Below, one piece after another: positions 1 through 63,434 of a stretch of DNA of 64,000 nt; within the stretch, counting starts at the first letter, position 1; each line of letters opens with the position of its first letter. The notes beneath the pieces are model-generated. The model made no database searches and was not told the DNA's origin. It was given only the letters and a program-made list of their open reading frames with translations. The stretch is taken from the IMG/VR virus record IMGVR_UViG_3300026382_000012, positions 1 to 64,000 of that record; one strand, written 5' to 3'. The DNA is from a virus. Both the position numbers and the translations under genes were made by a program.

Positions 1-411
1 GACAAAGAATATTGTTATTTTAGAAAAGGTGATCTATATGCATTAAGTATTGACATTCAGACTGGCGAGATTTCGTTTAAACCAGTTAAATTTATTATGC
101 GTCATAAAATAAATTTAAAAGAGAAAAAACTTTATAAAATTATTGGTAATCCTTACGGTGTTGTATATGTTACAGAAGATCATTCGTTAATAGTAAAACG
201 CGGCGAGAGATTTACTGTTACTACTCCAAGAAATTTACAACCGAATGACAAACTAATTTCATATACATTTGCTACAGACACAACCGAATATATTGATATT
301 AAAGATATCATAGACATCTCAAACGAGTTTAATGACGAGGAAATATATGTATATGACTTGCACGTAGAAGATAATAATACATTTCTAGCAGATAACTTTT
401 TTGTACATAAT
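1..411 (+). mobile_element. Intein (partial) inserted in PolB motif C (D|TDS)
   Basis: Block B VTEDHSL, block F VYDLHVE, block G FFVHN followed by Thr; no homing endonuclease between blocks B and F. Confidence 0.9.
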
Positions 412-1293
412 ACAGATTCTCTGTTTATTCAGGTTTTTGATAAAAATGAGTTTAAAAAATTAGGTTATGAATTAAAAGCTGATAAAGAAGTAATAGATGA
501 AATAGAGAAGAAATTTGTCAAACCAATATCAGAAAAAATAAATACTGAACTAACGAATTATTGGAATAATAATTTACTTAATAAACTTAATATAGACCCA
601 GAATGGAATACTATTGATTTTAAAACAGAAATTGTAATGGATAAAATATTACTTTTAGGTGTTAAAAAGAGATATGTTTGTCGAATATATAAGGAAGATA
701 AAACATATTATATTCCACCAAAGTTAAAATTTACAGGTATAGAAATAAAAAGAAGCGATAGTTCAAGATTAACAAAATATGCGCTTCAAAAGATAATTGA
801 TATCATTTTTACTTTTGAAGACAAGAAAGAAAGAATACAAAAAACTAAAGAACTTGTATTGGACATTAAGAAGAAATTTGATGATGCTAAGAAGAATTAT
901 GATCTTGAACTAATTGGAATCCCATCGTCATGGGGAATTAAAGAATATGAATCTATCCCTACATATGTATATGGTGCTATGTTATATAACACTTTAATTC
1001 AAGATATATGTAGACCCGGCGTTAAAGGATATAGGATACATATTAAGCTAAATCTACCAAAAATAAAAAAGATAATCCAAGAACTGAAGAATAAATCTAA
1101 ATATCAATTTGATATTAAAACATTTGAGAAAGTTTCAAATAAACTTGATGTAATATTTATTCCACCTGAGTTTAACAGGGAAAAAATAAAACAATTGGAA
1201 AAAGATAAAATTATACAAATAGATTGGGATACGCAGTATAATAAAATCATTAGAGAAAAACTAGAAACATATATTGATATTGTTAAGGATTAA
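1..1293 (+). CDS. Family B DNA polymerase, C-terminal subunit (motif C onward and thumb), intein-containing; 5' end outside window
   Basis: Frame is open from base 1. After the intein end (FVHN) comes TDSLF (motif C), then FKTE, KKRY and KFTGIEIKRSD, all PolB palm/thumb motifs. Confidence 0.9.
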   Translation, partial: DKEYCYFRKGDLYALSIDIQTGEISFKPVKFIMRHKINLKEKKLYKIIGNPYGVVYVTEDHSLIVKRGERFTVTTPRNLQPNDKLISYTFATDTTEYIDIKDIIDISNEFNDEEIYVYDLHVEDNNTFLADNFFVHNTDSLFIQVFDKNEFKKLGYELKADKEVIDEIEKKFVKPISEKINTELTNYWNNNLLNKLNIDPEWNTIDFKTEIVMDKILLLGVKKRYVCRIYKEDKTYYIPPKLKFTGIEIKRSDSSRLTKYALQKIIDIIFTFEDKKERIQKTKELVLDIKKKFDDAKKNYDLELIGIPSSWGIKEYESIPTYVYGAMLYNTLIQDICRPGVKGYRIHIKLNLPKIKKIIQELKNKSKYQFDIKTFEKVSNKLDVIFIPPEFNREKIKQLEKDKIIQIDWDTQYNKIIREKLETYIDIVKD

Positions 1294-1298
1294 TACCG

Positions 1299-3728
1299 AT
1301 GGATAATAAAGTAAAAAACATACCACCGTATAGATTCTACTTTCTGGATTATAATCCAGAACAACAATTAGCACTTTTTTATTATAAAGAAAGAATAAAT
1401 CAAGATAATTATACTACCGATCAATATATTAAAAAAATATTTTTGGATATTGAAGTATTTACAGAATTTGAGAATAAATTTCCTGAGCCAAAACACGCCG
1501 AAAAACCTATTAATGCTGTTACATTAATAAATGATAAAAGCGATATTGATATTTTATTCTTATTGCATAAAGACATTGTAAATTTTGACAGAGAAAAGAT
1601 AATTGAAAACATTATAAATAACTCAAAAAAAGAATACAATTTTGAAATTAATAATCTTAATATGTATGTGTTTGATGATGAAAGCGATTTAATATATACT
1701 ATGTGGAATATAATTCACAATTATGATCCTGCAATTTTAGTAGGATTTAACTCCGATTACTTTGATTTTCCATATATTGTGAGAAGAACAATTAATTTAT
1801 TTGGATATGAAGACGCGGCGCAATTAATAACTAAATTTAATGAATTTAATATATCAGGATTTAATATTTCAATACCAGATTTTCAATTAGTAGATATTTT
1901 AAAGATGTATAAACCAGGTGAAGGTTTTGGCTTTGGAAAAAATTTAGAAAAATTTAATCTTGATACTGTTGCCGAAGAAGAGTTAGGCGTCAAAAAAGTA
2001 GAACATGAAAATATATCATTAGATGAGTTATACATAAATGATCCGGAAAGATTTATTTATTACAACATGATTGATACATATCTAATTTATATGTTGGATA
2101 AGAAATTAAAACATTTTGACTTATTTAACGCACAACGCAGAATATCTTTCTGCCCTGTTTCAAGAGCATATCATGGTCGCTCCGTTATGGGCGAACAGAT
2201 ACAAACCTATAATATGTTAATTAACGAAAATAAAGTTCCAAGATCTTATCTAGTTAAAGAAAAATACGCAGTTGATGATAATGAAGATGAATTTAAGAAA
2301 TATTCACTTTCACTTTCATACTACGGTGCTTATGTTAGAGATCCAATTAGAGGAATATATGATGGGTTAATTATAGACTTAGACCAATCATTAACAGGTG
2401 ATCAATTAATTGTTATTAAAAGAGACGGTATAGCATTAGAAATACCTATAGGAAAATATGAATACAAGGAAGGTGATGAAACATTAACATTAGATCATAA
2501 TAAAAAGGTTTGTTGGAAAAAAGTAAAAGGCGTTATAAAACACAAAAACAAACATAAGATTTTAAAGATAAAGACTAAATCCGGTAAAATAATTAAAATC
2601 ACCGATAATCATTCTATTTTCATATATAGAAATGATAATATCGAATTAATTAAGGCAAGCGAATTAAAACATGGTGATAAAGTAATAACTATTGTAGGAT
2701 TTGATGAATTGATCAATACAGATAAAATTATTGAAATAGAAGTAATAGAAAAGAAAAAAGCGAGATATGTTTATGATATTTCAGTAGAAGACACTGAAAG
2801 ATTTTTTGCTAGAGATCCAGAATCAAATGGTTATATATTAGTACACAATACTTCAATGTATCCTTCATTGATTAAAATGTATAATATGGAATATAGTACA
2901 TATAAAGCCAAATTATACAATAATACAATATATGGTTTCATTAATGTTTTAAGGAAATTTATTAATAATGAAGATAAGACACTAACAACAGATATTATTG
3001 TTAACGCAATACAAAAACAATTATTACAATACTTGAAAAACCATACTACCAGTTATAAAAATTATTACAAAAAGAATATGTTATACATAACAAATATAAT
3101 TGAAACATTGAAAAATAGCGGATTTACTTTTGAAGAAATAATTTCTAATAAGAATTATTATCTTCTAAAGACAAAATTAGTGCCGTTATTAGAAATTGTT
3201 GAGCTAATACTTTCTGATGAATACAATAATATTATATACGATTATTTATTTATGGAATACACAGATTTCGTTGAAAAATATAGAAATATAAATTTTTACT
3301 TATTAGATAGCCCGACTGATAGTTATTCTCAATTAAAAATATTAAGTTTTGAAGAATTAATAGATGAATATTTAAAGAAGTATATAATCACAATTACTGG
3401 TTGTTTATTTATTAAACATTCAGAAAAGACCGGTTATATTATTCAATTGATAAATAAATTAATGAAAGAAAGAAAGCAATTAAAGAATAAATTAAAAGAA
3501 ATTGACCCTAACACAAAAGAATATGAACTTATGTATCGCACACAGTTAAGTATCAAAGTTCTTCTAAACTCACTATACGGAATTTATGGTTTAACTACAT
3601 ATAGATACAATGAGAAAAATATAGCAAACGCTATTACTATTTCAGGTAGAGTTCTAATTAAAACAGCTCAATATGTTGCAGATAGAACAATACAAGAATT
3701 TAAGAATAACGTTCTATCTTTCAATTAA
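1299..3728 (+). CDS. Family B DNA polymerase, N-terminal subunit (3'-5' exonuclease, motifs A and B), with mini-intein
   Basis: ExoI FLDIEV, ExoII GFNSDYFDFPY, ExoIII YNMID; motif A DLDQ|TSMYPS; motif B KVLLNSLYG; ORF ends before motif C. Confidence 0.92.
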   Translation: MDNKVKNIPPYRFYFLDYNPEQQLALFYYKERINQDNYTTDQYIKKIFLDIEVFTEFENKFPEPKHAEKPINAVTLINDKSDIDILFLLHKDIVNFDREKIIENIINNSKKEYNFEINNLNMYVFDDESDLIYTMWNIIHNYDPAILVGFNSDYFDFPYIVRRTINLFGYEDAAQLITKFNEFNISGFNISIPDFQLVDILKMYKPGEGFGFGKNLEKFNLDTVAEEELGVKKVEHENISLDELYINDPERFIYYNMIDTYLIYMLDKKLKHFDLFNAQRRISFCPVSRAYHGRSVMGEQIQTYNMLINENKVPRSYLVKEKYAVDDNEDEFKKYSLSLSYYGAYVRDPIRGIYDGLIIDLDQSLTGDQLIVIKRDGIALEIPIGKYEYKEGDETLTLDHNKKVCWKKVKGVIKHKNKHKILKIKTKSGKIIKITDNHSIFIYRNDNIELIKASELKHGDKVITIVGFDELINTDKIIEIEVIEKKKARYVYDISVEDTERFFARDPESNGYILVHNTSMYPSLIKMYNMEYSTYKAKLYNNTIYGFINVLRKFINNEDKTLTTDIIVNAIQKQLLQYLKNHTTSYKNYYKKNMLYITNIIETLKNSGFTFEEIISNKNYYLLKTKLVPLLEIVELILSDEYNNIIYDYLFMEYTDFVEKYRNINFYLLDSPTDSYSQLKILSFEELIDEYLKKYIITITGCLFIKHSEKTGYIIQLINKLMKERKQLKNKLKEIDPNTKEYELMYRTQLSIKVLLNSLYGIYGLTTYRYNEKNIANAITISGRVLIKTAQYVADRTIQEFKNNVLSFN
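2388..2849 (+). mobile_element. Mini-intein (154 aa) in PolB motif A
   Basis: Starts SLTGDQ, block B ITDNHS, block F VYDISVE, ends ILVHN before Thr; no endonuclease domain. Confidence 0.9.
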
Positions 3729-4492: not shown

Positions 4493-4883
4493 TAGCTGGA
4501 AAGACAGATTGAAACACAGAATTTATCTTTTATTATTTGGCAGAGATGATTTAGTTGATATTTTATCAGACATTCTCATACAAATAAGAAGTTTTATCGA
4601 ACGGTGCAAATACAGAAACAAAATAGAAATAGAAGAAATGTTTTATGATGAATATTATGATGTATTTAGGAAGTCACTAAGCACATACAAACAGTTGTAC
4701 ATAGATTTAGATGTAAATAGAGATAAGATAATTAAATTAATTAGTAAAAATAAAAGTATTGAAAAAGTAATAAACGAAATTATTGATAATAATAAAAAAT
4801 TAGAGGTTATTTTTAATTTATTGTTAGATAATAAAATAGATGATATTTGGGATACTTTGACTAGTTTGAAAGGAGGCCACTAA
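4470..4883 (+). CDS. Hypothetical protein
   Basis: ORF 4455..4883; GAGGA SD favours ATG at 4470. Confidence 0.6.
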   Translation: MKTVELLDSWKDRLKHRIYLLLFGRDDLVDILSDILIQIRSFIERCKYRNKIEIEEMFYDEYYDVFRKSLSTYKQLYIDLDVNRDKIIKLISKNKSIEKVINEIIDNNKKLEVIFNLLLDNKIDDIWDTLTSLKGGH

Positions 4884-5680
4884 TGTACACAATTAAAAAG
4901 AAATTTATGGTTGATCTGGCGCATATTGTGCCGACTCAACAATTTTTTAATCCTAAATATGAATGTAAATGTAGAAATATACATGGACATACCTTCACAA
5001 TCATTCCTATAGTAAAAGCAAAAAAATTAGATAAAAATACCAGAATGGTAATAGATTATACTCTATTTAAGCCATTTAAAGATGTTCTAGATAAATTTTT
5101 TGATCATAAATTTATAATCTCAGATAGAATACCTAACTATGAAAAAGTAGTTGATCTAATAAATCAAGTCAAATCTATATGCAACGGTAATGAAGGCAGA
5201 TATAGTAAAGCAATGATAACATATAAATCTATTACATTAGATAAAATTTTACTTACGAATATAGATAACGTAACTATTGTACATTGGGATAGCACCACGG
5301 CAGAAGATATGTCGCATTTTCTTCAATATATACTAGCAGATGAACTAATTAAAACTTTTGAAATAAGACAAGAAATTAGCATATCAGTAGCAGTTAAAGA
5401 AACACCGAATAGTTTTGCAGTATATAATAAACCATATACAATTGTGCCGAGTATTAGACTTGCATTAAGAAGGATTAATAGATTACCAGAGAAAGAAAAA
5501 ATATATGTTATAATCAATAATTTTATTCCATATGTAAAGAGGAACAATAATTTATATCCATATGTTAAGGATATCATAGATAAGATAGAATTGTTGCGCA
5601 AAAAACATTCGAATCAGAAACACATTTCTATACTAGTTGATAGATTGTTAAATGAAATAAATATGTTGAAAATTACTTAA
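4883..5680 (+). CDS. queD: QueD (6-carboxytetrahydropterin synthase) with C-terminal extension
   Basis: AH...CRNIHGH, MVIDY, FDH, TAE and VKETPNSFA motifs. Confidence 0.88.
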   Translation: MYTIKKKFMVDLAHIVPTQQFFNPKYECKCRNIHGHTFTIIPIVKAKKLDKNTRMVIDYTLFKPFKDVLDKFFDHKFIISDRIPNYEKVVDLINQVKSICNGNEGRYSKAMITYKSITLDKILLTNIDNVTIVHWDSTTAEDMSHFLQYILADELIKTFEIRQEISISVAVKETPNSFAVYNKPYTIVPSIRLALRRINRLPEKEKIYVIINNFIPYVKRNNNLYPYVKDIIDKIELLRKKHSNQKHISILVDRLLNEINMLKIT

Positions 5681-7940: not shown

Positions 7941-8321
7941 ATGAAGAAGTTAATTTGCCCAATCTGTAACAAAATGGTTGATTCGTTTTATATAGATTAT
8001 CGTGAAGCACAATATTGTTCTGTTTTATATCATGATGGTTATATTGACTGGGATAGTAAAGATATTGACGATACATATATTGAACTTATCACGTTAAGAT
8101 GTTCTAATTGTTTTATGTCATTTTCGGATGAATACTATAATATAGAAGAAGCAAAAAAATCTATTAAAGACTTTGAAATAGAATTAGATGCGAATAATAA
8201 TATTGTAAAAATAGGTGAAAGCGCAAAAATAATCTTACATAAACTAGCGCGTAAAAATAATATAGAAATAACAAATGATGAAGAATTAAACAATTTCTTT
8301 AAAATGTACTATAATTTATAA
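7941..8321 (+). CDS. Zinc-ribbon hypothetical protein, paralog of 13586..14005
   Basis: CPIC...DWD...CSNC...IGESAK. Confidence 0.7.
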   Translation: MKKLICPICNKMVDSFYIDYREAQYCSVLYHDGYIDWDSKDIDDTYIELITLRCSNCFMSFSDEYYNIEEAKKSIKDFEIELDANNNIVKIGESAKIILHKLARKNNIEITNDEELNNFFKMYYNL

Positions 8322-8343
8322 ACTACTTTAAAGGAGGTTGTTT

Positions 8344-9735
8344 ATGCAAAACACTAAAGTAAAAGTAAAACATATTGTAGATTATCTTAATGAACATGTT
8401 ATATCTCAGGATGACGCAAAAAGGCAATTAGCAATACTTATTAAGAATAAAGCAAGATATGAAAATATTAAAGAAGAAGATTGGAAGAAAAATATTACTC
8501 CATTTAATGCATTAATTATCGGCCCTACTGGTTCTGGTAAAACAGAACTATTTAGAAAATTGGCAGAATATTTAAATGTAGCATTTTGTAAAGTGGATAT
8601 TTCGGGTTATACTAGATCTGGATATGTTGGCAAGGATGTAGAAGATATTATTAATGTTCATTTATATGAGGCCGCTAAGAGAAAGGCAATAGAAGAATTA
8701 AAAGAAGAGTTAAGAGAAGATATAGAAAATAAGATTATTAAAGAACTGGCAGCTGCATATATAGAAAAACATAAAGATAAATTTACAAACAATAATGCTC
8801 ATAACACAATAGTAGGTTCCATGTTATTTACAGCAGATTCTGAAGATATTGAAAATGTTTTAAATAATATAAAAGAAATAGAAAAACGCATTAAACTTAG
8901 AGATCCCGATATTTTGAAAGAAGAAGTAACTGTAATCAGACAAGTATATAATTTACCTAAAAATGCTATTGTTCCACCGCAGATGAAAGATCAGTTTAGG
9001 GAAGAAAAAGCATTCACAGATACAATTGAAAATCTTCTTAAAGAGCTATTTGAGATTGATATACAGGAAATGGTTAAAGATAGTTCTAAACTAAGAAATA
9101 AGATTAAGGAATTGATGGAAAATGGAATTGTATTCATTGATGAAATTGATAAAATTGCAGGTAAAGATAATACTAGAATTGATACATCAGGAGTCCAAAA
9201 AGAGCTTCTTACATTGGTAGAAGGAACTACAGTTCAAACCGAGATCGGCCCAATTAACACAGATCATATTCTATTTATCGCAGCAGGTGCATTTCATACA
9301 GCAAAACCCTCTGATCTTCTTCCCGAATTATTGGGTAGATTTCCGGTTAGAATTGTATTAAAGAAACTCACAAAAGAAGATCTTAGAAGAATTCTTATCG
9401 AGCCAAAATATGCTATAATTAAGAAAGTTCAAAAGCTTTATGAAACAGATAACATCAAAATAGAATTTACAGATGATGCAATTGATGAAATTGCTGATAT
9501 TGCATGTCAACTTAATACAGAAGACGAAGATCTAGGCGCGAGAAGATTACATACCATTGTACATATGTTACTTGAAGACATAGATTTTGAAATTGAAGAA
9601 GGAAAGCTAGATAAAGAAAATATAGTTATAGATAAAGAATACGTAAGGAATAAGTACCAAGAAAAAGATAAGAAAATTAAAGAATCACTTGAATATCTTG
9701 AAGATAAGACAAGAAAAGTCGGGTTTGTTGTTTAA
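8344..9735 (+). CDS. hslU: HslU (ClpY)-like AAA+ unfoldase with atypical C-terminal KVGFVV tail
   Basis: GPTGSGKTE Walker A, GYVG pore loop, IVFIDEIDKIA Walker B, TDHILFIAAGAFH, PELLGRFPVR, LGARRLHT. Confidence 0.92.
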   Translation: MQNTKVKVKHIVDYLNEHVISQDDAKRQLAILIKNKARYENIKEEDWKKNITPFNALIIGPTGSGKTELFRKLAEYLNVAFCKVDISGYTRSGYVGKDVEDIINVHLYEAAKRKAIEELKEELREDIENKIIKELAAAYIEKHKDKFTNNNAHNTIVGSMLFTADSEDIENVLNNIKEIEKRIKLRDPDILKEEVTVIRQVYNLPKNAIVPPQMKDQFREEKAFTDTIENLLKELFEIDIQEMVKDSSKLRNKIKELMENGIVFIDEIDKIAGKDNTRIDTSGVQKELLTLVEGTTVQTEIGPINTDHILFIAAGAFHTAKPSDLLPELLGRFPVRIVLKKLTKEDLRRILIEPKYAIIKKVQKLYETDNIKIEFTDDAIDEIADIACQLNTEDEDLGARRLHTIVHMLLEDIDFEIEEGKLDKENIVIDKEYVRNKYQEKDKKIKESLEYLEDKTRKVGFVV

Positions 9736-9756
9736 ACTACTTTAAGGGAGGCATTA

Positions 9757-10038
9757 ATGGAGCTATTCCTAGTTATAGACAATACAATATCAAATATTTT
9801 TAATAAATGCATAGTCGGAGTAATGGATATATATTATGTACTTGATTATATTCAAGAGAGAATAAATGACTTTGAAGATTATATTTTAGATGATGAAGAT
9901 TTTATTATGCCCGATTTTGATGAATTAGAAAATGAACTAAGAAATATGCCATTTGGCGATGATATTTGTATTAGATTACCAGGAACCGATGATTATATTG
10001 ATATAATAAAAGTACCTGTGTATAAAGATCAAGATTAA
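9757..10038 (+). CDS. Small acidic hypothetical protein
   Basis: ORF after repeat element and SD; D/E-rich. Confidence 0.65.
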   Translation: MELFLVIDNTISNIFNKCIVGVMDIYYVLDYIQERINDFEDYILDDEDFIMPDFDELENELRNMPFGDDICIRLPGTDDYIDIIKVPVYKDQD

Positions 10039-10056
10039 ACTTTGAAGTGAGAAAAT

Positions 10057-10566
10057 ATGGCAACTATAATTAAAACTAAAGACGTTAATTTTAAATCAAT
10101 AGATATTAATTTAACAGCTGAAGAAAGTATTAAACTATATAACCGTATTAAAAAATATTTAGTGAGAGTAATTAAAATAATATATGGCTCCACTACTATT
10201 AAAAGACCATTTATATTATATGACGGCACAAAATCTTTTGAGCATAATCTAATTTATAATATTCTAAAATCAACTTCTAATAGATCTTATAGATTTAATT
10301 GCTATTCAATGATTTCAGCATTCTATGGTGAACTGAACTGGGTGAAAGTCAAACCATATTTTAAATTAATGAAAAAACTTATACGAGAATTTAATAAAAG
10401 AAAAGATATACATATAGAAATTAGAGGTTATCGTGTATATATACTTTACAAAAGCAAAATGATAAATGAATACATATCATACGGACAACAAGAATATGAA
10501 TATTTAACTGAAGATATTGTTGATGAAGTTGTTAACAGAATTAAATTAACGATTTTATCTAAATAA
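10057..10566 (+). CDS. Hypothetical protein (C-terminal motif family, extended)
   Basis: Ends DEVVNRIKLTILSK. Confidence 0.65.
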   Translation: MATIIKTKDVNFKSIDINLTAEESIKLYNRIKKYLVRVIKIIYGSTTIKRPFILYDGTKSFEHNLIYNILKSTSNRSYRFNCYSMISAFYGELNWVKVKPYFKLMKKLIREFNKRKDIHIEIRGYRVYILYKSKMINEYISYGQQEYEYLTEDIVDEVVNRIKLTILSK

Positions 10567-10599
10567 TCCATACATAAAACTACTTCAAAGGAGGTTAAC

Positions 10600-11802
10600 A
10601 TGATTCAAATGTCGGTTTCTAAGTTTATTAACGTTTATCTTCCTGTTATTGTAAAATATGATTTTGATGTTATTCCTGTCATGGTTGGAAATCCTGGCAT
10701 ATCAAAAACAGCTCAATTGCATCAGCTTTGTGAAAGAATGAATTGGGGTTTGGTACCCGTGCATCTTGCCCTCCGACCAATTGAATCATTGTCAGGTTTA
10801 CCTGAAATCAAAAGATTTGATAATGAATTACATACGGAATGGTCTATGCCAGAAATTATTTCCAAAGCAAATGAATTGGCCAAAAAACATGAAAAAGTTA
10901 TACTATTCTTTGATGATATACATCTTGCTGATAAATCGAGACAAGCATACTTCTTCGAATTAGCGTCCGAAAGGGCGCTGCAAGGACATAAATTAGCAGA
11001 TAATGTTAGAATTGTTTGTGCCGGGAACCCTACTGCAAAGGCCGGCGCAAAAACATTTCTAACAGCAATTATTAACAGATTTACATTTATAGACGTTGGT
11101 ATTACATTAAAAGATTGGCAAGATTGGGTGCTAGATAATACCAATAAATATGCTAAGTTTAATGCTAATATTAATGAGAAAGACATCGAAAGAGTTAGAT
11201 CATATAAAATACATCCGATGGTATTAGGTTTCCTTATGGATAATGATGCAAAACTATCTGAAGGTGAAAATACTTCGCCATTTGCATCTCCAAGATCTTG
11301 GTATTTTATGTCAGAATGGGTGAAAATTTTCGAATTACTATATGGAAATACAAATAATTGGAATGATGATGTTATTTCTGATTTTAGCAATATAGCTAAA
11401 GGTACTATAGGTGCATCGATTGCTACAGAATTTGTCACATTTATTAAATATACGTATGATATTGATATTGAGAAAATTATGAAAGATCCTAAAGAACTAC
11501 TTAAAATACAGGATAAAGAGAAAAGAATTGCCGCATATACACTTACATTGGCTAGGCTAGCAGACCCTAAGAACAGAAAATACTGTGTTAGATTTATAGA
11601 CTTTGCATATTATATCCTTGGAAATAATGGAAAAGCAAAACATTTCGCCACAATTGCAATTTCTGTACTAAAGAATCAGATTATTCCAGCTGCATCGAAA
11701 ACAGTATTTGAAAATGATTATCTGCCGCCTTACGATGGCAGAGGATATAAAGAATTCTTCGATATTCTTACAGAAATTATTAACGATCTTAAATTTGTAT
11801 AA
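10600..11802 (+). CDS. MoxR/dynein-related AAA+ ATPase
   Basis: GNPGISKT Walker A, LFFDDI Walker B, CAGNP, NRF, SPRSW. Confidence 0.85.
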   Translation: MIQMSVSKFINVYLPVIVKYDFDVIPVMVGNPGISKTAQLHQLCERMNWGLVPVHLALRPIESLSGLPEIKRFDNELHTEWSMPEIISKANELAKKHEKVILFFDDIHLADKSRQAYFFELASERALQGHKLADNVRIVCAGNPTAKAGAKTFLTAIINRFTFIDVGITLKDWQDWVLDNTNKYAKFNANINEKDIERVRSYKIHPMVLGFLMDNDAKLSEGENTSPFASPRSWYFMSEWVKIFELLYGNTNNWNDDVISDFSNIAKGTIGASIATEFVTFIKYTYDIDIEKIMKDPKELLKIQDKEKRIAAYTLTLARLADPKNRKYCVRFIDFAYYILGNNGKAKHFATIAISVLKNQIIPAASKTVFENDYLPPYDGRGYKEFFDILTEIINDLKFV

Positions 11803-11806
11803 ACTG

Positions 11807-11828
11807 ATTGGGGCGGTCGCGCCCCAAT
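11807..11828 (+). terminator. GC hairpin between MoxR and VWA genes
   Basis: ATTGGGGCG-GTCG-CGCCCCAAT; weak U-tract, so possibly a stability or processing hairpin. Confidence 0.45.
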
Positions 11829-11850
11829 TAACTACTTTAAAGGAGGCATA

Positions 11851-13377
11851 ATGGAAAAGAAAAAACTAACAAATGAAGATTGGTCAACAATAGTAACAAA
11901 CCTAATATACTTCGATAAAAATAGCGTATTATATCCATTTCTTAGGGCTCTACAAGGGTTTATTTTAATGCTAGAACATGATATTGAAATTTCCGATGAG
12001 AAAGAAATCTCTGACTTATATATCGAATATAATAATGGCAATATTATTGTCAAAGGAACTTTAGCTGAAATTTCTGATAAGAATGAGAGAATTAAACAAT
12101 GGACATTTGATGTGGCACATACAATATTTATGTATATAAATAGACAGCCGCAAAGAGGAAAAAATAAAATCGCGCAGTTATGGTTTAAATCGCTATGTAA
12201 ATTAAATAACGATTTATATGGTTTGTCATATCCGAAAATATATTATAAATTGTTTGAAGATGCTGACACGATTATAAACAAAGTAAAAGAAAAAGTAAAG
12301 AATTATAGCTATTCTGAGGAAGAAAATTATAAAATTTTAAAATCTATGCATAAATCATTTAATAATTCATTAAATAATTTTCTACAAGAACTATCACAAG
12401 TTATACAACAATTGAATCAAATGATGTCATCTACCAATAGTAGAAGCACAAAATCTAAACTAACAAACCTCAAGAATAAATTAGAAAAGATTCGTGATGA
12501 TCTTACAAATAAGGGATATGCAGACAATAATGATATTGAACAATCCAAAGATTTAAATAATTCAACACCTAATAAAACGTTAAAGAAAAAAATTGATGAT
12601 CTTTTAAATAAGTTACAAAAATCCGAGTTTAACAGTAAAAATATACCAATTAATTGGTATGAAAATTCAGCTAATGATGAACAAGGAAATGAGAATAGTG
12701 ATAAAGTAACTAATATTATACATAGATCGTTAAGAGCTTCATTTGAAAAATTGAAAGGAGAATTGCCTGGGCATATTATTGATAAGTTAAGAAAATTATT
12801 AAAGATAGAACTTGATTGGAGTGAAATTCTATCGCGCGCTTTAAATACATTTTTAGAAAAATCACAAGCTAAAAAATGGAACTATCCAAACATCTATTAT
12901 AGACACATTAGATACTTACCATCAGATGATTTTGAAGAATCAATACATAACATAACATGTTTTGTAGATACTTCTGGATCTATGTCTGATGAAGAACTAG
13001 AGAAAATTTTTGGTATCATATACGATCTTATAGAGAAAAATAATATCAAAACGATTACCATTATACAACATGACTATGAATTACAACATTATGAATTAAT
13101 CGATGCAGAAGACATTGCCGATGAAAAAGATTTACTGAATAAAATTAAAATATATGGTAGAGGTGGCACATCTCATATAAGACCTTGGAAGAAATTCGAA
13201 GAATTAATGGAAATGGAAGAACTACCATTTCCAGATTTGGTAATATTTATGTCAGATTTCTTTTCAGATTTTGAAGAGTTGTATAACGAAATTAAAAATG
13301 ATTATGAATGTTTCTGTATTACAACAGATAAGAAACCAGCAATTAACGATAAATCAAGAATTATTAAGATTAGATAA
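11851..13377 (+). CDS. VWA-domain protein (DUF2201-like), MoxR partner
   Basis: MIDAS DTSGSMS, GRGGTS, FMSD; LDWSEIL and YLPS motifs. Confidence 0.85.
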   Translation: MEKKKLTNEDWSTIVTNLIYFDKNSVLYPFLRALQGFILMLEHDIEISDEKEISDLYIEYNNGNIIVKGTLAEISDKNERIKQWTFDVAHTIFMYINRQPQRGKNKIAQLWFKSLCKLNNDLYGLSYPKIYYKLFEDADTIINKVKEKVKNYSYSEEENYKILKSMHKSFNNSLNNFLQELSQVIQQLNQMMSSTNSRSTKSKLTNLKNKLEKIRDDLTNKGYADNNDIEQSKDLNNSTPNKTLKKKIDDLLNKLQKSEFNSKNIPINWYENSANDEQGNENSDKVTNIIHRSLRASFEKLKGELPGHIIDKLRKLLKIELDWSEILSRALNTFLEKSQAKKWNYPNIYYRHIRYLPSDDFEESIHNITCFVDTSGSMSDEELEKIFGIIYDLIEKNNIKTITIIQHDYELQHYELIDAEDIADEKDLLNKIKIYGRGGTSHIRPWKKFEELMEMEELPFPDLVIFMSDFFSDFEELYNEIKNDYECFCITTDKKPAINDKSRIIKIR

Positions 13378-13585
13378 GTTATTTGGTGCTTAAAGTCTTA
13401 GAGCAAGAAAGAGAGATAATCAGATATTTAAATGGTTTAAAGAAGTTTTAGTTCAAACTGACGCGATGGTCGTAATCCCTGGTACTTTGCAAGGAGGATT
13501 TAAAGTAAAATTCAGAGACGATCTAGTCCAGAAATGTAGATATTAATGTTTTGTTATTAGTTAGAAACAAGAAAGAGAGGTAACC

Positions 13586-14005
13586 ATGAAGAAAAGATAT
13601 TTTGTCTGCCCAGATTGTGGTTTAGTAGATAATGTAGAAATGCACGGTTATACAATTACCACTTTTTACATAAGATTTTCTGGAAATGATTATGATTGGG
13701 ATGCATATGAAGAAGATTCAAGTAATAATAGTATGAATATACATACTATTTTATGTCCTAATTGCTATAATGAAATAGCCGAAGGTCTAGACATAGCATC
13801 AGATGATTATGATACAATCTATAAATATCAAATTATTGTAGATACCAAAAATAATAAAATTGAAATAGGCGAATTTGCAAAAGAATTATTAATTGAATAC
13901 GTAACTAATAATGTATTTTTACCTGAAGAATTTAGTAACAAAAATGAATTTACAGATGAAGATCTGGTAAACATAGTTAAATTAATTTTGCTAGAAGAAA
14001 AATAA
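13586..14005 (+). CDS. Zinc-ribbon hypothetical protein, paralog of 7941..8321
   Basis: CPDC...DWD...CPNC...IGEFAK. Confidence 0.7.
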   Translation: MKKRYFVCPDCGLVDNVEMHGYTITTFYIRFSGNDYDWDAYEEDSSNNSMNIHTILCPNCYNEIAEGLDIASDDYDTIYKYQIIVDTKNNKIEIGEFAKELLIEYVTNNVFLPEEFSNKNEFTDEDLVNIVKLILLEEK

Positions 14006-14025
14006 CTACTTTAAAGGAGGGTTTC

Positions 14026-14352
14026 ATGTCTACGCCTTGTAAAATTGTTTTGAAAAAAGATAATCGTAAATATATTACTTATTATTCTTCGGACGGCTAT
14101 CCAAATGAAATATTACCTATGTTAATAAATCTAAACGAATTAGAGCCAGACGAATATCCGGTATACGATGAACACAATGATCCATATTTTGATTTTGATT
14201 TTCTTTATGTAATAGAAGACGATAAAATCAAAGTATTTAATCCAAATGTAGCAGATGCTATTTACGATAGAAGTACTGGTGGATTAATAGAACTAATTCC
14301 ATATGATGATGACGATGAGTATGTAGAATCAATATATCCGAAAAAAGTATAA
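14026..14352 (+). CDS. Acidic hypothetical protein
   Basis: MST...SDGYP start, a pattern seen in small phage proteins. Confidence 0.65.
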   Translation: MSTPCKIVLKKDNRKYITYYSSDGYPNEILPMLINLNELEPDEYPVYDEHNDPYFDFDFLYVIEDDKIKVFNPNVADAIYDRSTGGLIELIPYDDDDEYVESIYPKKV

Positions 14353-14382
14353 TCTGCTTAATAAAAAGTAAAGGAGGAATTC

Positions 14383-14961
14383 TTGGTACCCATAGTAATA
14401 GAACAGAGCAACGGTTATGAAAGAGCATACGATATTTATTCTAGATTGCTAAAAGATAGAATAGTTTTTATCGGCACGCCCATAGATGATACAGTAGCAA
14501 ATACAGTTATAGCTCAATTGCTATTTCTAGAATCACAAAAAGATGATGAAGATATTTATCTTTATATAAATAGCCCTGGTGGTGTTGTTACTGCCGGGCT
14601 TGCTATATACGATACTATGCAATTTATTAAACCAGACGTAGTAACTATTTGTATTGGACAAGCTGCTAGTATGGCAGCAGTATTATTAGCAGCAGGAACA
14701 AAAGGCAAAAGATTTTCATTACCGCATTCAAGAATAATGATACATCAACCGATTGGCGGCATACAAGGACAAGCTACAGACATAGAAATACATGCTAAAG
14801 AAATTTTAAGAATTAAACAAACATTAAATGAAATACTTTCCAAACATACAAATCAGCCTATTGAAAAAATAGAACAAGATACAGATAGAGATAATTTTAT
14901 GACTGCTGAAGAAGCATTAAAGTATGGTATAATTGATAAAATTATTGAAAAAAAATCTTAG
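14383..14961 (+). CDS. clpP: ATP-dependent Clp protease proteolytic subunit
   Basis: [22 protein letters not shown] (Ser), IHQP (His), DRD (Asp); intact triad. Confidence 0.97.
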
Positions 14962-16046: not shown

Positions 16047-16811
16047 ATGAAAATGTCAAAGAAAGTTGCGATTGTTTATTCGGGCGGATTAGATTCTTTA
16101 GTAACAGCACATTTATATCATTCATTACAATATGATGTAACATTAATACATTATACATATGGCCAATATGCACAGAATTTTGAATTAGAATATACTAAAA
16201 AATATGCTGATTATATCAAGGCAAAATTAGAAATCATAGATGCCAAAAAAATATTTGAACCGTTTAGTGAAATATCTACATTATTAAATAAAGAAAGAAA
16301 TGAAGATGAATTAAGAGAAGCAGAATCTGATAGTAACTATGTTCCTATGAGAAATTTGATATTGATTTCTTATTCGGCCGCTATTTGTGAAAAATTAGGA
16401 ATAAATAAATTAGCATATGGTGCTAATGTAACTGAATCAGGAAATTATCCAGATAATTCAGTTAGATTTTTTGAGAATTTAAAATCTACATTAAAAACAT
16501 CTGGCAAACAAGGATTTAAGTTAGAATTGCGGGCGCCGTTAATAAATTTAACTAAAACAGAAATAGTTAAATTAGGTTATTATTTCGATGCTCCGTTTGA
16601 GCTATCATTATCATGTTATTATCCAACTGAGGATGGTAAACATTGTGGTAAATGTGGTTCATGTTTATTAAGAATTAATGCATTTAAAAGAGCTAATATA
16701 AAAGATCCTGCTATGAATGATATAGATGATGAAACTAAAGAATTAAAATATATTGACAAATTACAGTTAAAAGAAGAAGTAGAAAGACTTCTTAAATATA
16801 TCGAAGTTTAA
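16047..16811 (+). CDS. queC: QueC 7-cyano-7-deazaguanine synthase (Gat-QueC-type domain)
   Basis: SGGLDS, YGQ, VPMRN, YPDN, SCY...HCGKCGSC. Confidence 0.93.
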   Translation: MKMSKKVAIVYSGGLDSLVTAHLYHSLQYDVTLIHYTYGQYAQNFELEYTKKYADYIKAKLEIIDAKKIFEPFSEISTLLNKERNEDELREAESDSNYVPMRNLILISYSAAICEKLGINKLAYGANVTESGNYPDNSVRFFENLKSTLKTSGKQGFKLELRAPLINLTKTEIVKLGYYFDAPFELSLSCYYPTEDGKHCGKCGSCLLRINAFKRANIKDPAMNDIDDETKELKYIDKLQLKEEVERLLKYIEV

Positions 16812-17168: not shown

Positions 17169-17540
17169 ATGTATGCTGCGCTTTTAGTCACACCCGATGG
17201 TGACTATGTAATCACATACGAATCTAAAACAAAAGATGAAGTTATAGAAAAACTAATCAATCGCGGCAGTAATTGGCATTTTTATCCAATTGAATTTATT
17301 AAATATCCATTTAATCCAAATGGATATATTGTTGATCATCCCTATGGTACACTAGGCTGGCCAGATAGGAAAATAAAAATTAAGAAAGTATTAGATGCTT
17401 TTAAAAAAGCATCTAAATTTTTAGAAGAAAATAATCTTGAGATAAATGATCTTAACGATTACATTGAGCTTGTTGCTGGGTTTCTAAACAAAAGGAGAGT
17501 TAGTAATGTGTACAATAATCGGTGCGAAAATAGACGTTAA
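17169..17540 (+). CDS. Hypothetical protein
   Basis: ORF after repeat element. Confidence 0.6.
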   Translation: MYAALLVTPDGDYVITYESKTKDEVIEKLINRGSNWHFYPIEFIKYPFNPNGYIVDHPYGTLGWPDRKIKIKKVLDAFKKASKFLEENNLEINDLNDYIELVAGFLNKRRVSNVYNNRCENRR

Positions 17541-18237
17541 AAATATAACAGTCAATGAACTAAACTACATTTCTGATTATATTAAAAATAATATATCAGT
17601 TAGAGGTAGAGATGGTTATGGATTAGAGATTATAACTGATAATATATACATGGATGAATATAGTATAAAAACAAAATCATATATAGAATTTAAGAATCAT
17701 TTCACACGTGTATTAGATTATGCTATAAATGATACAAATGAATATTTAACAATATTAACACAATCTAGAGCAATTCCTGAAACTGAAGATAATGTAAATA
17801 TAAACGAATATCAGCCTATAGTCTCTAGCAAACAGAAATTTATAGTATGTCATAATGGATTGATTTATAATGATAAAGAACTCGCGGCGCAATATAAACT
17901 AAAAATCAACTATGACTCACAAATAATTCCTGAACTATTAGGAATTAATTTTTCAAAATTCAAAGACTCTAGTACTAGATTAATCGATACCTTAGCCAAC
18001 ACATATAAAGAATTAAAAGGATCCTTTTCATGTATTATAGGCATTTGTAATGAAAACAAAGATTTATTTAAAAGAAGTATATCGTTTATGGTAAATTACC
18101 AACCTTTATATTATATCAAAGGCTGCAATTTTATAATATTCACTAATATTAAAACAGTGGATTGTATTGAAATAGAACCATATAGTGTGGGATTTTATGA
18201 TTTGAGAAATAAAAAATTAATTACAAATCAATTATAA
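17506..18237 (+). CDS. Class II (Ntn) glutamine amidotransferase, Gat domain of Gat-QueC type
   Basis: N-terminal M-C, RGRDGYG, SRAIPETE, QP, HNGLIYND, DS, GSFS. Confidence 0.85.
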   Translation: MCTIIGAKIDVKNITVNELNYISDYIKNNISVRGRDGYGLEIITDNIYMDEYSIKTKSYIEFKNHFTRVLDYAINDTNEYLTILTQSRAIPETEDNVNINEYQPIVSSKQKFIVCHNGLIYNDKELAAQYKLKINYDSQIIPELLGINFSKFKDSSTRLIDTLANTYKELKGSFSCIIGICNENKDLFKRSISFMVNYQPLYYIKGCNFIIFTNIKTVDCIEIEPYSVGFYDLRNKKLITNQL

Positions 18238-25738: not shown

Positions 25739-25868
25739 CTACTTTATGCTCCTCCATTCCTACTTAAACTTATTAAAAATTAAGTAGGAATTTTGGAGCA
25801 CGGAGATTCATAAAGAACCTCATTACTACCCACTATCCCTTTAGATAGGGATTCGTGGGATACCTTTA
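25728..25868 (-). ncRNA. Predicted TnpB omegaRNA of element 1 (scaffold plus flank-derived guide)
   Basis: Nested hairpins TATCCCAC..TCCCT/AGGGA..GTGGGTA and GTGCTCC..ATTCCTACTTAA/TTAAGTAGGAAT..GGAGCAT, shared with the other two elements. Confidence 0.65.
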
Positions 25869-27240
25869 AAAGTAGGTTATATAATGAACTCTGAATATCA
25901 GACATAAATATTCTTATAGGTCTCGCTAACTTATCCAGCCAAATATTAAAAGGCAAACAATTAACTATATCCTTTCTGACTTTCTTAATGATGTTCAAAG
26001 CGCCGTTGCAATCGGCATTCCAGATTTTATTAAGTTTTAAATCTTTGAAAAGACCTCTTTTTATTCTCTTGCCGTTATAAGATTCTTTCTTTGATGGTTG
26101 TTCAGTTAAAGCTGAACATTTAGATGTATAAGATTCATCTACTTCCACAACTTTAATACCGAATTTCTCACATTTGTATTTTAATTGCTCAATTAACATT
26201 CTAAAAGGCAAATAAACAAAATTTTGATTTGTTCTATCACCCAAATTAATTTCTTGTTTACTTTCAATTGCAGATTTACCTATTATAACATGCTTAATAC
26301 CAAATAATAGAAATAAGGTAACTAATTTGGATGTAATTTGATGGAACATACTTTTAATTCTTCTTGCTCTATAACGTTCTAATTTACGCCTCAATATTTT
26401 ATTTTCTCTTGATTGTAACTCAGCTTTGATTTTATTATACCATTGATTAAACGACTTAAACTCTTTACCATTAATTATTAATGACTTAAATTCTGGATGA
26501 TTGGAAACAATAGTCATGAGATTATCTAGTCCTAAATCTATACCAGCTACATATTTATCGTTCTTTATATTAGATAATTTAGGAATGTGTATTTTATATA
26601 CTACCTGTATGTAATAGTCGTCTAATTTCTTAACAACTCTCACAGAAGTGATTTTTTCCTCAAAATATTTAGGTAATTTGATTTTAATATTGGATTTTTT
26701 TGAATTTAATTTTAGTTGTATTACTCTACCTTTAGCTGATTCTATAATTTTAAATACTAAACTGCTAAATTCAATAGAGCAATTATTGACTCTTTCTATT
26801 TTCTTTGGTATTGGTGGTTTTGGCGGTGATTTAAATTTTGTTGGGTCTTTCTTATATTCATGAATAGCGGCGAAATATGATTTATAATTATTTGCTATTT
26901 CTTTGATTAATGCTTGAAATAAAGCATTGCCTAAATATTCTTTAATATTCTTTAGTTGTATATACAATTGTTTGTTTATACTGTCTGTTAATAATTCAGT
27001 TTCATATTGTTTCTTGAGTGAGATTTTCTTACTATAATCGCCACGGTTATAAATTTTACCAGTAAATAGTAAATTAAGATTTTGCAATGTTATACCTATT
27101 TTGACAAAAAATTTAAAATTTCTATTGATTAATAAATAAAACATATTCTTTGCATGGACATATGTCTTACATAACTTCATAACTTTCTTCTTTCTATCAC
27201 CTCGAATTCTGATTTCCAGAATATGGTTGATTGTCTTCAC
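25780..27240 (-). CDS. tnpB: TnpB RNA-guided nuclease (IS607 type)
   Basis: GIDLG, LKYK, VDESYTS, NADCNGALNI. Confidence 0.92.
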   Translation of the reverse strand: MKTINHILEIRIRGDRKKKVMKLCKTYVHAKNMFYLLINRNFKFFVKIGITLQNLNLLFTGKIYNRGDYSKKISLKKQYETELLTDSINKQLYIQLKNIKEYLGNALFQALIKEIANNYKSYFAAIHEYKKDPTKFKSPPKPPIPKKIERVNNCSIEFSSLVFKIIESAKGRVIQLKLNSKKSNIKIKLPKYFEEKITSVRVVKKLDDYYIQVVYKIHIPKLSNIKNDKYVAGIDLGLDNLMTIVSNHPEFKSLIINGKEFKSFNQWYNKIKAELQSRENKILRRKLERYRARRIKSMFHQITSKLVTLFLLFGIKHVIIGKSAIESKQEINLGDRTNQNFVYLPFRMLIEQLKYKCEKFGIKVVEVDESYTSKCSALTEQPSKKESYNGKRIKRGLFKDLKLNKIWNADCNGALNIIKKVRKDIVNCLPFNIWLDKLARPIRIFMSDIQSSLYNLLLKVSHESLSKGIVGSNEVLYESPCSKIPT

Positions 27241-28866: not shown

Positions 28867-30783
28867 TTATCTAACCTTTAAGGATACAACGATAAATTCA
28901 ATAGCTCTAATGAATTTAACATCAAGATCAATATATAATGTACTACTTGTATCATCAAATCTTACATTTAATTTATATTCTTTAATTGCTTCTTTTGTGA
29001 ATAACGGGCCGCCTTCTAACCATTGTTTGAGATAATTATTAACTCTTCTATATGCTTCTTTAATTACATTAGTAGTAGCTTTTCTTTGTAGTAGATCTTT
29101 AAGTATTTTTGGTATCTCTTTTCTAAATGTATGTATAACTTTTACAACATGCGCGCGCTGTAATATAGAAAGTCTCTTATAAGTAGTGAATTGTGTTGGT
29201 ATATAAGTACCATCAGGTTCTTTAATAGTTGGGTTGATCTGCCTATTGGTTAATTCATTAGCTTGGGCAAATATAGGAGAATAACTTAACTCAATAGGAT
29301 CCTGAATAAATGCTTTAAACATAGCAACGGGTTCAGCAATACCTTGAGTATTATCTACATTTAGATGACATTCAAGAGCATGATATGTGGGCGGGAACCA
29401 AACAGTTTTACCTGTATAAGGATCAGTCATTTTTCTATATTGGGAATATAACATAACATTGTATGTGGCATATGGTACATCATTTAATCTAGATTCAATA
29501 TCTTGAGTATATTTAGTATTAAACGGCATAGAAATTAAACCTAATACATCCTCTCTTACATCACAGAATTCTCTCATTGCAGCCTTAACTGTGAGAGGAT
29601 ATCCTGGATCTACTACATAATCGATTGGATAATATTGATATTGTGTATCTAGTAATTTAACACAATCTTCAGAATAAGTACCATTGAATACAGATGTTAA
29701 TAATTTATTTGCGACGCTCCAATCCAATTTACCAAATGAATCAAATAGAGATCCATCGGAACCGTTTTCGAAGTTAATCTGATCAGAGAAAGATTCTACT
29801 ACTAATTTTCTTGCATAAAGAGCTTCTACATCATTAGCACCGGCGCCATATAGAGATTTAACTTTATCTTCATTTGCAATTACTCTGATAAATTCAGAAT
29901 CTTCATTTATTCTAGTAACAATGTATAATTCTCTACCTGTAGTAGGATGTCTTACTGTATTGCCTGCAATTTTGTTTACTAAAGATGCAGTAATGGGGCC
30001 TTCTAATAATTTAACAGAACCATCTTCTTGTTCTTCATAAACATATATATCAACAAACATATATGGGAATAATGGATCACCTTTCTCATCTACATACATT
30101 TGTTCTAAAGTTGTATTTCTTACAAAAGATATTTTGATTTTGTTATAGAATTCGCCGCGACCAATTGGATAGAAAGTAAATACAGAATCATTAAATCCAG
30201 GATCACCTTTTAGTTCTTCTACTGAATTGGCATTAGATACAGAATCTAAAGTAACAACAGGTACTTTATGTACAATCGCGCCTGTATTAACACTTACAGG
30301 CTTATCTAATGTAATAGTATTACTAGAAGTATCAATATTAACAACAGTATATACATTGTTAATATCTTTATTAAAGAATATCTTATCATTTATAGAAATT
30401 TTAGATACATCATCTAATTCAATATCAGTAGCATCTGTATAATTGTTCTGTACTACAGGATTGGGCGAATAATCATTAATATTAACAGAAATTCTTTTAT
30501 TAGCTAATGTTGCATCATCAGGCAATACTCTAATGAGATATACCTTATTAGTATATAGAGATGCTTTTAATGCAAAATGCAAACCAAATCCATATTTCTC
30601 AGGATCTGGTTTTCCATAAACTCTTTCAATTTGAGTAGGAGAACTCATTAATTCTATTGTTTTATCCGGGCCTTTTGGAGATAAAATTGGTATGAATACT
30701 ACTCTATCGCCCGAGAAATTTGGTTCTACATAAGATACATCTTGAACATAGAATTGTATTTGGGGCATAGTTGTTAAAGACAT
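28867..30783 (-). CDS. Contractile tail sheath protein (gp18-like)
   Basis: KGP...YGKPD...YLIRV, DPYTGKTVWFPP, QINP, RAIEFI; SD favours start at 30783. Confidence 0.9.
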   Translation of the reverse strand: MSLTTMPQIQFYVQDVSYVEPNFSGDRVVFIPILSPKGPDKTIELMSSPTQIERVYGKPDPEKYGFGLHFALKASLYTNKVYLIRVLPDDATLANKRISVNINDYSPNPVVQNNYTDATDIELDDVSKISINDKIFFNKDINNVYTVVNIDTSSNTITLDKPVSVNTGAIVHKVPVVTLDSVSNANSVEELKGDPGFNDSVFTFYPIGRGEFYNKIKISFVRNTTLEQMYVDEKGDPLFPYMFVDIYVYEEQEDGSVKLLEGPITASLVNKIAGNTVRHPTTGRELYIVTRINEDSEFIRVIANEDKVKSLYGAGANDVEALYARKLVVESFSDQINFENGSDGSLFDSFGKLDWSVANKLLTSVFNGTYSEDCVKLLDTQYQYYPIDYVVDPGYPLTVKAAMREFCDVREDVLGLISMPFNTKYTQDIESRLNDVPYATYNVMLYSQYRKMTDPYTGKTVWFPPTYHALECHLNVDNTQGIAEPVAMFKAFIQDPIELSYSPIFAQANELTNRQINPTIKEPDGTYIPTQFTTYKRLSILQRAHVVKVIHTFRKEIPKILKDLLQRKATTNVIKEAYRRVNNYLKQWLEGGPLFTKEAIKEYKLNVRFDDTSSTLYIDLDVKFIRAIEFIVVSLKVR

Positions 30784-30841
30784 GTCTAACTTCTCCTTCT
30801 TATACACAAAAAGATCAAAAAATAAGAATGGAAATTATTCT

Positions 30842-48981: not shown

Positions 48982-49110
48982 ATGATCAAAATACCATCCA
49001 TCCTCCTAATCTCCTACTCAATAATAATCTAACATAATACTTTGAGTAGGATTTCGGAGGACAAAGTAACTACCGTCCCAGGCCCTATATCAGGTTCCTG
49101 GTTGCTTTTA
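48982..49110 (-). ncRNA. Predicted omegaRNA of element 3
   Basis: GTCCTCC..TCCTACTCAA/TTGAGTAGGA..GGAGGAT stem, homologous to element 1. Confidence 0.6.
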
Positions 49111-63100: not shown

Positions 63101-63434
63101 TGTTTTCAACCTCAGTCTTCTTTTTAACAAATTGTCCTAACTTTGTTAATGTATTTATAATGTCGTCATATATAGCTAATACATCATTGGTTGTTAATGC
63201 ATGTAACGCGGGTTTTATATCTTCAATAATATTAATTACATATTGAATATTGGGATATTTATCAACATAATTTGTTAATGTCTCTTTTATTTTTTCAATT
63301 TGATTTATAACGGTATATTTTAGTATATAATCAGATAGTAAAGATAAAGTCTGATTAGATGTTAATTCGGGATTTTCTTCTTGTTGAATATTTTCAGATT
63401 CTATATCATTCTGTTCATATAGGAGGTAATACAT
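63093..63434 (-). CDS. Hypothetical head-module protein
   Basis: Between portal and protease. Confidence 0.6.
   Translation of the reverse strand: MYYLLYEQNDIESENIQQEENPELTSNQTLSLLSDYILKYTVINQIEKIKETLTNYVDKYPNIQYVINIIEDIKPALHALTTNDVLAIYDDIINTLTKLGQFVKKKTEVENNA

Follow-up and report, generated by a model that had tools for sequence, protein, structure and literature searches.

The first 64 kb of the 85,766-nt virus record IMGVR_UViG_3300026382_000012 from IMG/VR, referred to here as the window, contains genes for two components of ATP-dependent proteases. These are an HslU-family AAA+ unfoldase (8344..9735, + strand; 463 aa from the ATG at 8344) and a ClpP serine peptidase (14383..14961, + strand; 192 aa), the second gene lying 4,648 nt past the stop codon of the first and on the same strand. 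AAA+ proteases are viewed as fixed pairs, with HslU partnering the hexameric threonine peptidase HslV, and ClpX, ClpA or ClpC partnering the heptameric serine peptidase ClpP. The sequence comparisons set out below tip modestly in favour of the unfoldase having been rewired from HslV to ClpP, such that the phage may possess an HslU-ClpP protease, as had been put forward in a preliminary description of this DNA. The record is estimated by CheckV to be ~33% complete, leaving two thirds of the genome unseen, and statements on the absence of hslV therefore apply to these 85.8 kb only.

Translation of the unfoldase gene probably starts at the ATG at 8344, which lies 6 nt after a Shine-Dalgarno sequence, AAAGGAGG, and was the start originally proposed. 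The analyses used the open reading frame (ORF) that opens with a TTG at 8338 (8338-9735, 465 aa), and residue numbers are based on it. The top match of the protein in NCBIfam is the HslU model TIGR00390, with a score of 326 bits against an equivalog cut-off of 362.45. This match spans profile positions 4-432 of 441 and ends nine short; as it stops before the end of the profile, the unmatched part corresponds to the canonical HslU tail, hence the score below the cut-off. Models of ClpX reach only 170-197 bits, compared with cut-offs of 359-371 (170.6 bits against 370.75 for TIGR00382), and no C4 zinc-binding domain of the type found at the N-terminus of ClpX lies ahead of the AAA+ module. Similarly, a search of the sequences in the PDB matches HslU with an E value of 4e-78 and ClpX with one of ~2e-37. 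The protein was also modelled with AlphaFold2 (AF2), giving a predicted local distance difference test score (pLDDT) of 89.4 and a predicted template modelling score (pTM) of 0.84, and the top Foldseek matches of this model are ClpY/HslU chains, at a TM score of ~0.7 with 430-464 columns aligned.

The functional motifs of the family are found in invariant alignment columns: GPTGSGKT (62-69), GYVG (95-98), FIDEIDK (266-272) and GARRL (400-404), representing the Walker A and B motifs, the pore-1 loop (8620..8631, + strand) and the sensor-2 arginines. Between Walker A and Walker B is an I-domain insertion (residues ~103-250; 8644..9087, + strand), identified from the AF2 secondary structure and the full-length Foldseek alignment, which takes the form of an inserted helical/beta domain in the model. 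A further segment quoted in the preliminary description, TDHILFIAAGAFH, was found at residues 308-320. The family scores, PDB matches and fold together identify the product of the ORF at 8344-9735 as a true member of the HslU family and not a ClpX, so that the initial assignment to the HslU class, made from the GYVG loop and an I-domain-sized insert, is borne out by TIGR00390, AF2 and Foldseek alike. The record contains no second ClpX-like or HslU-like gene.

The ORF at 14383-14961 starts with a TTG after AAAGGAGG, begins at the mature N-terminus and encodes a genuine ClpP. Its score of 335.7 bits against TIGR00493 exceeds the cut-off of 308.6, and it aligns without gaps to solved ClpP proteins (E value 4e-90), with the catalytic triad (S96, H121, D170) and the apical LLFLE and YLYINSPGG segments intact; the pocket residues were assigned by E. 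coli ClpP numbering. There is no second ClpP in the record, and an identical protein (P0129) is found on a 129,858-nt contig. The nearest cellular ClpPs, at 77-81% identity, are those of Aquificota, mostly Desulfurobacteriaceae (Thermovibrio, Desulfurobacterium, Balnearium and Phorcysia). Two studies of hydrothermal vents have yielded metagenome runs with DNA near-identical to that of the window, and the record itself may derive from one of these studies; no RNA run is listed for the unfoldase-clpP region. The fit between these Aquificota-like relatives and the vent habitat suggests a host lineage within the Aquificota/Desulfurobacteriaceae and a fairly recent capture of clpP; the host is thus probably a vent bacterium of the Aquificota. 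This presumed host lineage encodes HslU (P0097), and HslV is presumed to be present there. A role for the ClpP as a prohead protease was considered and rejected, on the basis of its identity to cellular ClpP and its position in a + strand block of non-structural genes. A separate head-maturation protease (61397-63130, - strand; phrog_207, E value 3e-28) is encoded in the structural module of what is a tailed phage, also possessing a tail sheath gene (28867-30807, - strand).

It is at the C-terminus that the unfoldase differs from canonical HslU. The AF2 model contains a C-terminal helix (residues 433-455; 9634..9702, + strand) that extends ~14 residues beyond that of canonical HslU, the insertion also being seen in alignments, and this is followed by a flexible basic tail, DKTRKVGFVV (9703..9732, + strand), with the V-G-F codons at 9718-9726 and the stop codon at 9733-9735. 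The ending KTRKVGFVV, noted from the outset, is thus present (...EDKTRKVGFVV), and it is predicted to be disordered, pLDDT being < 50 over residues 459-465. The terminal VGF is the sole instance of [LIVM]GF in the protein, an internal IGF loop of the ClpX type being absent.

Relatives were sought among 1.84 billion representatives, exhaustively with HMMER and also by word-indexed searching. A small set was recovered (P0001-P0008, P0250 and P0251) at 99-44% identity, the next matches being ordinary bacterial HslUs at ~40% or less. The unfoldase forms a clade with about nine metagenomic relatives, and all ten tail-bearing members have the extra stretch of ~14 residues, followed by two basic residues, [IV]-G-F and 0-2 further residues. 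Checking the conservation of [LIV]GF had been recommended in the preliminary description, and [IV]GF proves to be invariant in 10/10 members of this clade despite identity falling to 44%, with G462 and F463 of the unfoldase forming invariant columns. By contrast, the residues after the phenylalanine vary (VV, VF, VI, LG, VL, IT, LA, or none in P0251, which ends at F). The exposed, flexible [LIV]-G-[FL] element characteristic of the unfoldases that partner ClpP accordingly has a counterpart here, in a predicted-disordered VGF that is invariant in the clade. In other datasets, no member of the clade was among the matches listed in a metagenome scan, which were to bacterial HslU with a best identity of 40%; the window's own record was the only one in scans of viral contigs; and a scan of genome contigs with P0008 returned zero.

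The ten sequences with this tail group together in one clade, the sister of all the canonical HslUs sampled, with a Shimodaira-Hasegawa-like approximate likelihood ratio test (SH-aLRT) support of 96. This remains 93.7 with the last 30 residues removed, so the grouping does not depend on the tail trait itself. It is barely credible that the conservation of the tail is an artefact, whether of chance, of a gene-calling error or of overlap with a 17-nt gene-start element, AACTACTTTAAAGGAGG. A copy of the latter does span 9735-9751, beginning at the last base of the unfoldase stop codon, but the V-G-F-V-V codons (9718-9732) are wholly upstream of it, on which ground the encoding of the tail by the element was rejected; furthermore, the invariant motif is retained by divergent relatives with differing flanks and tail lengths.

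A similar ending was observed once outside this clade. P0350 is a singleton HslU from a 4,505-nt Joint Genome Institute (JGI) contig, not part of the window, that is 50-55% identical to HslUs of Bacillota. Its canonical tail is replaced by ...GDGKKKETRIGFAI (ending ...KKKETRIGFAI), although all 119 of its 119 nearest relatives have the canonical [FY]-I-L end. In a free tree it nests among canonical HslUs, inside a clade with support of 99, although an approximately unbiased (AU) test did not reject a single origin of the tail (p 0.41). The same rewiring may have arisen a second time, independently, in P0350, or the singleton may itself be an artefact; it provides only a hint of convergence.

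The significance of these changes lies in the different means by which HslU and the Clp ATPases engage their peptidases. The C-terminal octapeptide of E. coli HslU, EDLSRFIL, is sufficient for HslV activation, and in free HslU the phenylalanine of the tail packs into the neighbouring subunit, against P315 (PMC4106860). The ClpP-docking element of Clp ATPases is the IGF tripeptide, which binds hydrophobic pockets (PMC11448347; PMC8745299). The canonical [FY]-I-L end is found in 117 of the 164 sequences tallied, comprising top representatives, the clade and cluster members. In the clade, the canonical ending D-L-S-x-[FY]-I-L has lost its D-L-S, and of this ending the unfoldase keeps the aromatic residue at position -3 alone. 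Constraint has thus shifted off the positions relevant to HslV and onto a Clp-type ClpP-docking tripeptide. The simplest history would be one in which the ancestral tail phenylalanine (E. coli F441) was retained while the two residues preceding it turned into I/V-G.

The genes accompanying unfoldases of different types bear on the same question. Members of the HslV/proteasome family are absent from both the window, as had been reported, and the whole 85,766-nt record, when searched for with PF00227, TIGR03692 and a custom HslV hidden Markov model (HMM) run over six frames; this model was constructed from 54 hslV genes adjoining bacterial hslU, and its top match in the record had an E value of 0.4. 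The gene directly upstream of the unfoldase, where hslV is located in an hslVU operon, instead encodes a zinc-ribbon protein. Among bacterial metagenome loci with enough upstream sequence, hslV was just upstream of hslU in 66 of 69, and viral HslUs with canonical tails in IMG/VR also have hslV adjacent (loci L001/L183 and L181). Viral ClpX-like proteins of ~400 aa, having an internal IGF loop at around residue 260, are encoded within 10 kb of a true ClpP in 33/81 and 10/80 loci, the ClpP often being 4-6 kb downstream. Cultured jumbo phages encode HslU-like proteins with neither tail motif, and ClpP and HslV are both lacking from the complete genomes of these phages. Hence the peptidase encoded nearby can be predicted, across viral and bacterial loci, from the kind of docking element, and the clade of the unfoldase constitutes a fourth combination, of an HslU body, a C-terminal IGF-type motif and ClpP.

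One of the arrangements encountered is that of a widespread IMG/VR phage group (L012, L015, L027, L032 and ~30 other loci), in which a ClpX-like protein with an internal IGF loop is followed by ClpP ~4-6 kb downstream and preceded by an ATP-dependent DNA ligase, all on one strand. A DNA ligase gene is also carried by the phage described here, but comparison of the window with the ClpX-ClpP phages found the common genes to be the ATPase, ClpP and DNA ligase, the intervening genes differing.

The co-occurrence of clpP with the clade, another check recommended at the outset, was found in all three of the contexts examined. Besides the window, P0002 (86% identical to the unfoldase) and the ClpP P0134 (95%) are both on a 13,509-nt JGI contig, matched by size and source, while P0003 (67%) and the ClpP P0135 (84%) are both on a 3,245-nt contig, matched by size, which places the two genes no more than ~1.3 kb apart. 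The six ClpPs of the clade-linked phage lineage moreover have changes on the apical surface, which faces the unfoldase, and these changes seldom or never occur in 113 Aquificota-type ClpPs or in the phage ClpPs linked to ClpX. The N-terminal loop reads SNGY or TEYG in place of T-x-[RK]-G, and residues 51-56 read SQKDDE in place of AEDPEK, including K56E, where the bacterial set has Lys without exception (100%). Such substitutions hint at possible co-adaptation of the peptidase.

A number of observations nevertheless weigh against rewiring. Known ClpP partners carry the docking motif within the chain, on a loop, instead of at the C-terminal end. In 9/10 clade members a phenylalanine at -3 is followed by two mostly hydrophobic residues, in the same register as [FY]-I-L, and the proline against which this phenylalanine packs (E. 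coli P315) is conserved here as P324; both retentions are compatible with a tail that interacts in the HslV manner or functions purely intramolecularly. The linkage to clpP covers the three closest lineages only, with the contexts of P0004, P0006, P0007, P0008, P0250 and P0251 falling outside the count. The changes to the ClpP surface come from a single lineage and may represent drift, and as the record is ~33% complete, hslV could lie elsewhere in the phage genome.

Some of these points would be accounted for were the tail a diverged activator still directed at HslV, encoded either by the host or by an unseen phage hslV, with ClpP an unrelated auxiliary acting with host ClpX or ClpA. In addition to the retained register and proline, the surrounding HslV-facing loop is conserved (PMC4106860), and the likely host lineage has an HslU of its own. 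This explanation is nonetheless unlikely, given that D-L-S is replaced by basic residues and an invariant I/V-G at the end of a 14-residue extension; that the last two positions, near-invariant in canonical HslUs, are free to be G, T or A, or to be missing altogether; and that hslV is absent from the record despite its nearly universal adjacency to hslU, while those viral HslUs that are paired with hslV retain the canonical tail.

Alternatively, the protein might be a stand-alone unfoldase or remodelling chaperone, with its tail acting intramolecularly, in autoinhibition or assembly, or binding another protein, and with the phage ClpP serving host ClpX, ClpA or ClpC. Precedent for such an enzyme exists in the complete genomes of Erwinia phages Desertfox and Phobos and Klebsiella phage Miami, which have HslU-like ATPases without ClpP or HslV; the packing of the tail phenylalanine into the neighbouring subunit of free HslU is in keeping with an intramolecular role (PMC4106860), and the close identity of the phage ClpP to cellular ClpP would make host unfoldases usable. 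However, the jumbo-phage proteins have neither [LIV]GF nor the canonical tail, whereas here a ClpP-type tripeptide is invariant, at the end of a disordered and lengthened tether, and clpP is present in 3/3 contexts checked. A stand-alone role is therefore not very probable. The proposal that HslU has been redirected to ClpP is thus favoured by tail conservation, linkage to clpP, the lack of hslV in the record and the relationship between docking element and neighbouring peptidase; the part of it that fares less well is the departure from HslV, as the HslV-type register, with its phenylalanine at -3 and hydrophobic end, is mostly kept.

If the unfoldase is indeed rewired to ClpP, the phage would encode a two-part ATP-dependent protease assembled from non-cognate components. 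A hexamer of the HslU-family protein would select substrates via its diverged I-domain and thread them through the GYVG pore loops. The HslV-activating tail would have been converted into an extended helix and, beyond it, a flexible, basic tether of ~10 residues ending in [IV]-G-F, and six such tails would engage the heptameric surface of the host-derived ClpP of the phage, and possibly that of host ClpP too. Docking would then open the ClpP gate, allowing unfolded protein to be fed in; the docking, gating and substrates are all predicted features of the scheme. The longer, flexible tether may suit the 6:7 symmetry mismatch between the two rings, and the machine would probably allow the phage to control the breakdown of proteins, its own or the host's, in the infected cell.

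The two genes are located in a block whose members may be regulated together. Directly upstream of the unfoldase gene, at 8321..8337 (+ strand), is the 17-nt element AACTACTTTAAAGGAGG, which includes the Shine-Dalgarno sequence. Allowing up to two mismatches, there are 19 copies in the window (5686-57469), all on the + strand and just before start codons, against a chance expectation of 0. The element precedes six genes of the block, namely those encoding the HslU-like protein, orf9757, a MoxR-like protein, a von Willebrand factor A (VWA)-like protein, orf14026 and orf14997, and clpP comes directly after orf14026; common regulation of the block is therefore plausible. The element has the look of a class-specific signal, either a promoter or one for translation initiation, serving blocks of non-structural genes.

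Between the unfoldase and clpP are genes for a MoxR-like AAA+ ATPase (10600..11802, + strand; Pfam AAA_5/AAA, phrog_1297 ATPase) and a protein with a DUF2201_N domain, a putative metallopeptidase, and a VWA-like region (11851..13377, + strand; PF13203, PF09967). Proteins of the DUF2201_N/VWA type are the usual partners of MoxR ATPases, and these two genes form a second chaperone-like pair within the block and are not counted as part of the proposed protease. The order of HslU-like and MoxR genes is kept in a more divergent relative, found among four vent and unlabelled DNA runs (in run X3), in which other small genes are situated between them. The zinc-ribbon protein encoded immediately upstream of the HslU-like gene (7941..8321, + strand) has four Cys residues, and a second such gene (13586..14005, + strand) is found two genes upstream of clpP. 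The pair is paralogous (BLASTP E value 4e-8, 25% identity), and a role for these proteins as accessory factors or adaptors is speculative.

Elsewhere in the window, ~20 ORFs on the + strand (19588-58289), encoding proteins of 160-290 aa, share a position-locked end, in which residue -8 is Asn and residues -4 and -1 are hydrophobic, examples being ...NLHKLKLF, ...NYLNISRL and ...NFLNVKRL. BLASTP detects a paralogue for just 8 of the 26 ORFs tested, so paralogy does not account for the common ending. The 17-nt element, which in one frame reads CTA CTT TAA, may encode part of some of these ends (...LL*, ...LF*). A role of the unfoldase as a hub for the proteins with such ends, suggested in the preliminary description, is speculative. 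It could be supposed that the unfoldase and ClpP form a phage-private machine, whose specificity is tied to the C-terminal signal of these ~20 mostly unrelated ORFans, as timed degron-tagged substrates or adaptors, with the zinc-ribbon paralogues serving as detached adaptors resembling the zinc-binding domain of ClpX, but this extension is quite improbable.

The remainder of the window, which has a GC content of ~26%, includes several other features. A family-B DNA polymerase (PolB) is split between two ORFs within 97-3728, each with intein/Hint matches, and the C-terminal part is encoded first. Three TnpB/OrfB_IS605-type genes, with Cas12f-like TNB domains, are present at 25780-27240 (- strand), 46500-47816 (+ strand) and 49085-50485 (- strand). 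Genes encoding QueD-like, QueC and glutamine-amidotransferase proteins, at 4883-5680, 16047-16811 and 17506-18237, suggest 7-deazaguanine modification of the phage DNA.

Phage-borne ClpP, ClpX, ClpA and ClpS are already known (PMC7824862), as are phage HslU-like ATPases. Within the incomplete coverage of a literature search, no HslU-ClpP pair, HslU with a ClpP-type docking motif, or docking on ClpP by a C-terminal tail was found. Were the pairing real, it would imply that changing a few residues of a flexible terminus is enough to rewrite the partner specificity of AAA+ proteases, the ancestral tail phenylalanine apparently having been reused as the F of IGF, and it would offer a natural example of ClpP docking from a C-terminal tail instead of a loop. 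It would likewise provide a simple system in which six tethers engage seven pockets, and would add to the vent phages of thermophiles a protease under phage control whose substrates are selected by an I-domain.

Of the known systems, HslUV (ClpYQ) is the best match in family, sequence and fold, its HslU having the same AAA+ core, GYVG loop, I-domain and sensor/arginine residues, and also engaging its peptidase through the extreme C-terminus (PMC4106860). The phage protein differs from it in scoring below the equivalog cut-off, in its longer helix and K/R-[IV]-G-F-xx ending, and in being linked to clpP in a record without hslV. With ClpXP, ClpAP and ClpCP it has in common an [LIV]-G-[FL] tripeptide on a flexible element, a peptidase of the ClpP family and the 6:7 geometry problem (PMC11448347; PMC8745299). 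Unlike ClpX, however, it carries the motif at the C-terminus and not on a loop of the large AAA+ domain, lacks the zinc N-domain and branches with HslU. The modules of ClpX-like proteins and ClpP in phages, both in IMG/VR and in jumbo phages (PMC7824862), likewise consist of unfoldase and ClpP genes of the same orientation, commonly separated by 4-6 kb; their unfoldases, by contrast, are ClpX-type proteins of ~400 aa with an internal IGF loop and no I-domain, and other genes intervene. The HslU-like proteins of cultured jumbo phages (phrog_4339; Agricanvirus and Derbicusvirus of Erwinia, Miamivirus of Klebsiella) resemble that of the window in being phage members of the HslU family without hslV, but lack [LIV]GF, the canonical tail and ClpP, and are 26-43% identical over partial matches. 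A more distant parallel is HbYX docking by proteasomal ATPases, in which a short C-terminal hydrophobic/aromatic motif enters pockets between the subunits of a heptameric peptidase ring, causing the gate to open; the motif, ATPase family and peptidase family all differ from those considered here, and the analogy is a conceptual one only.

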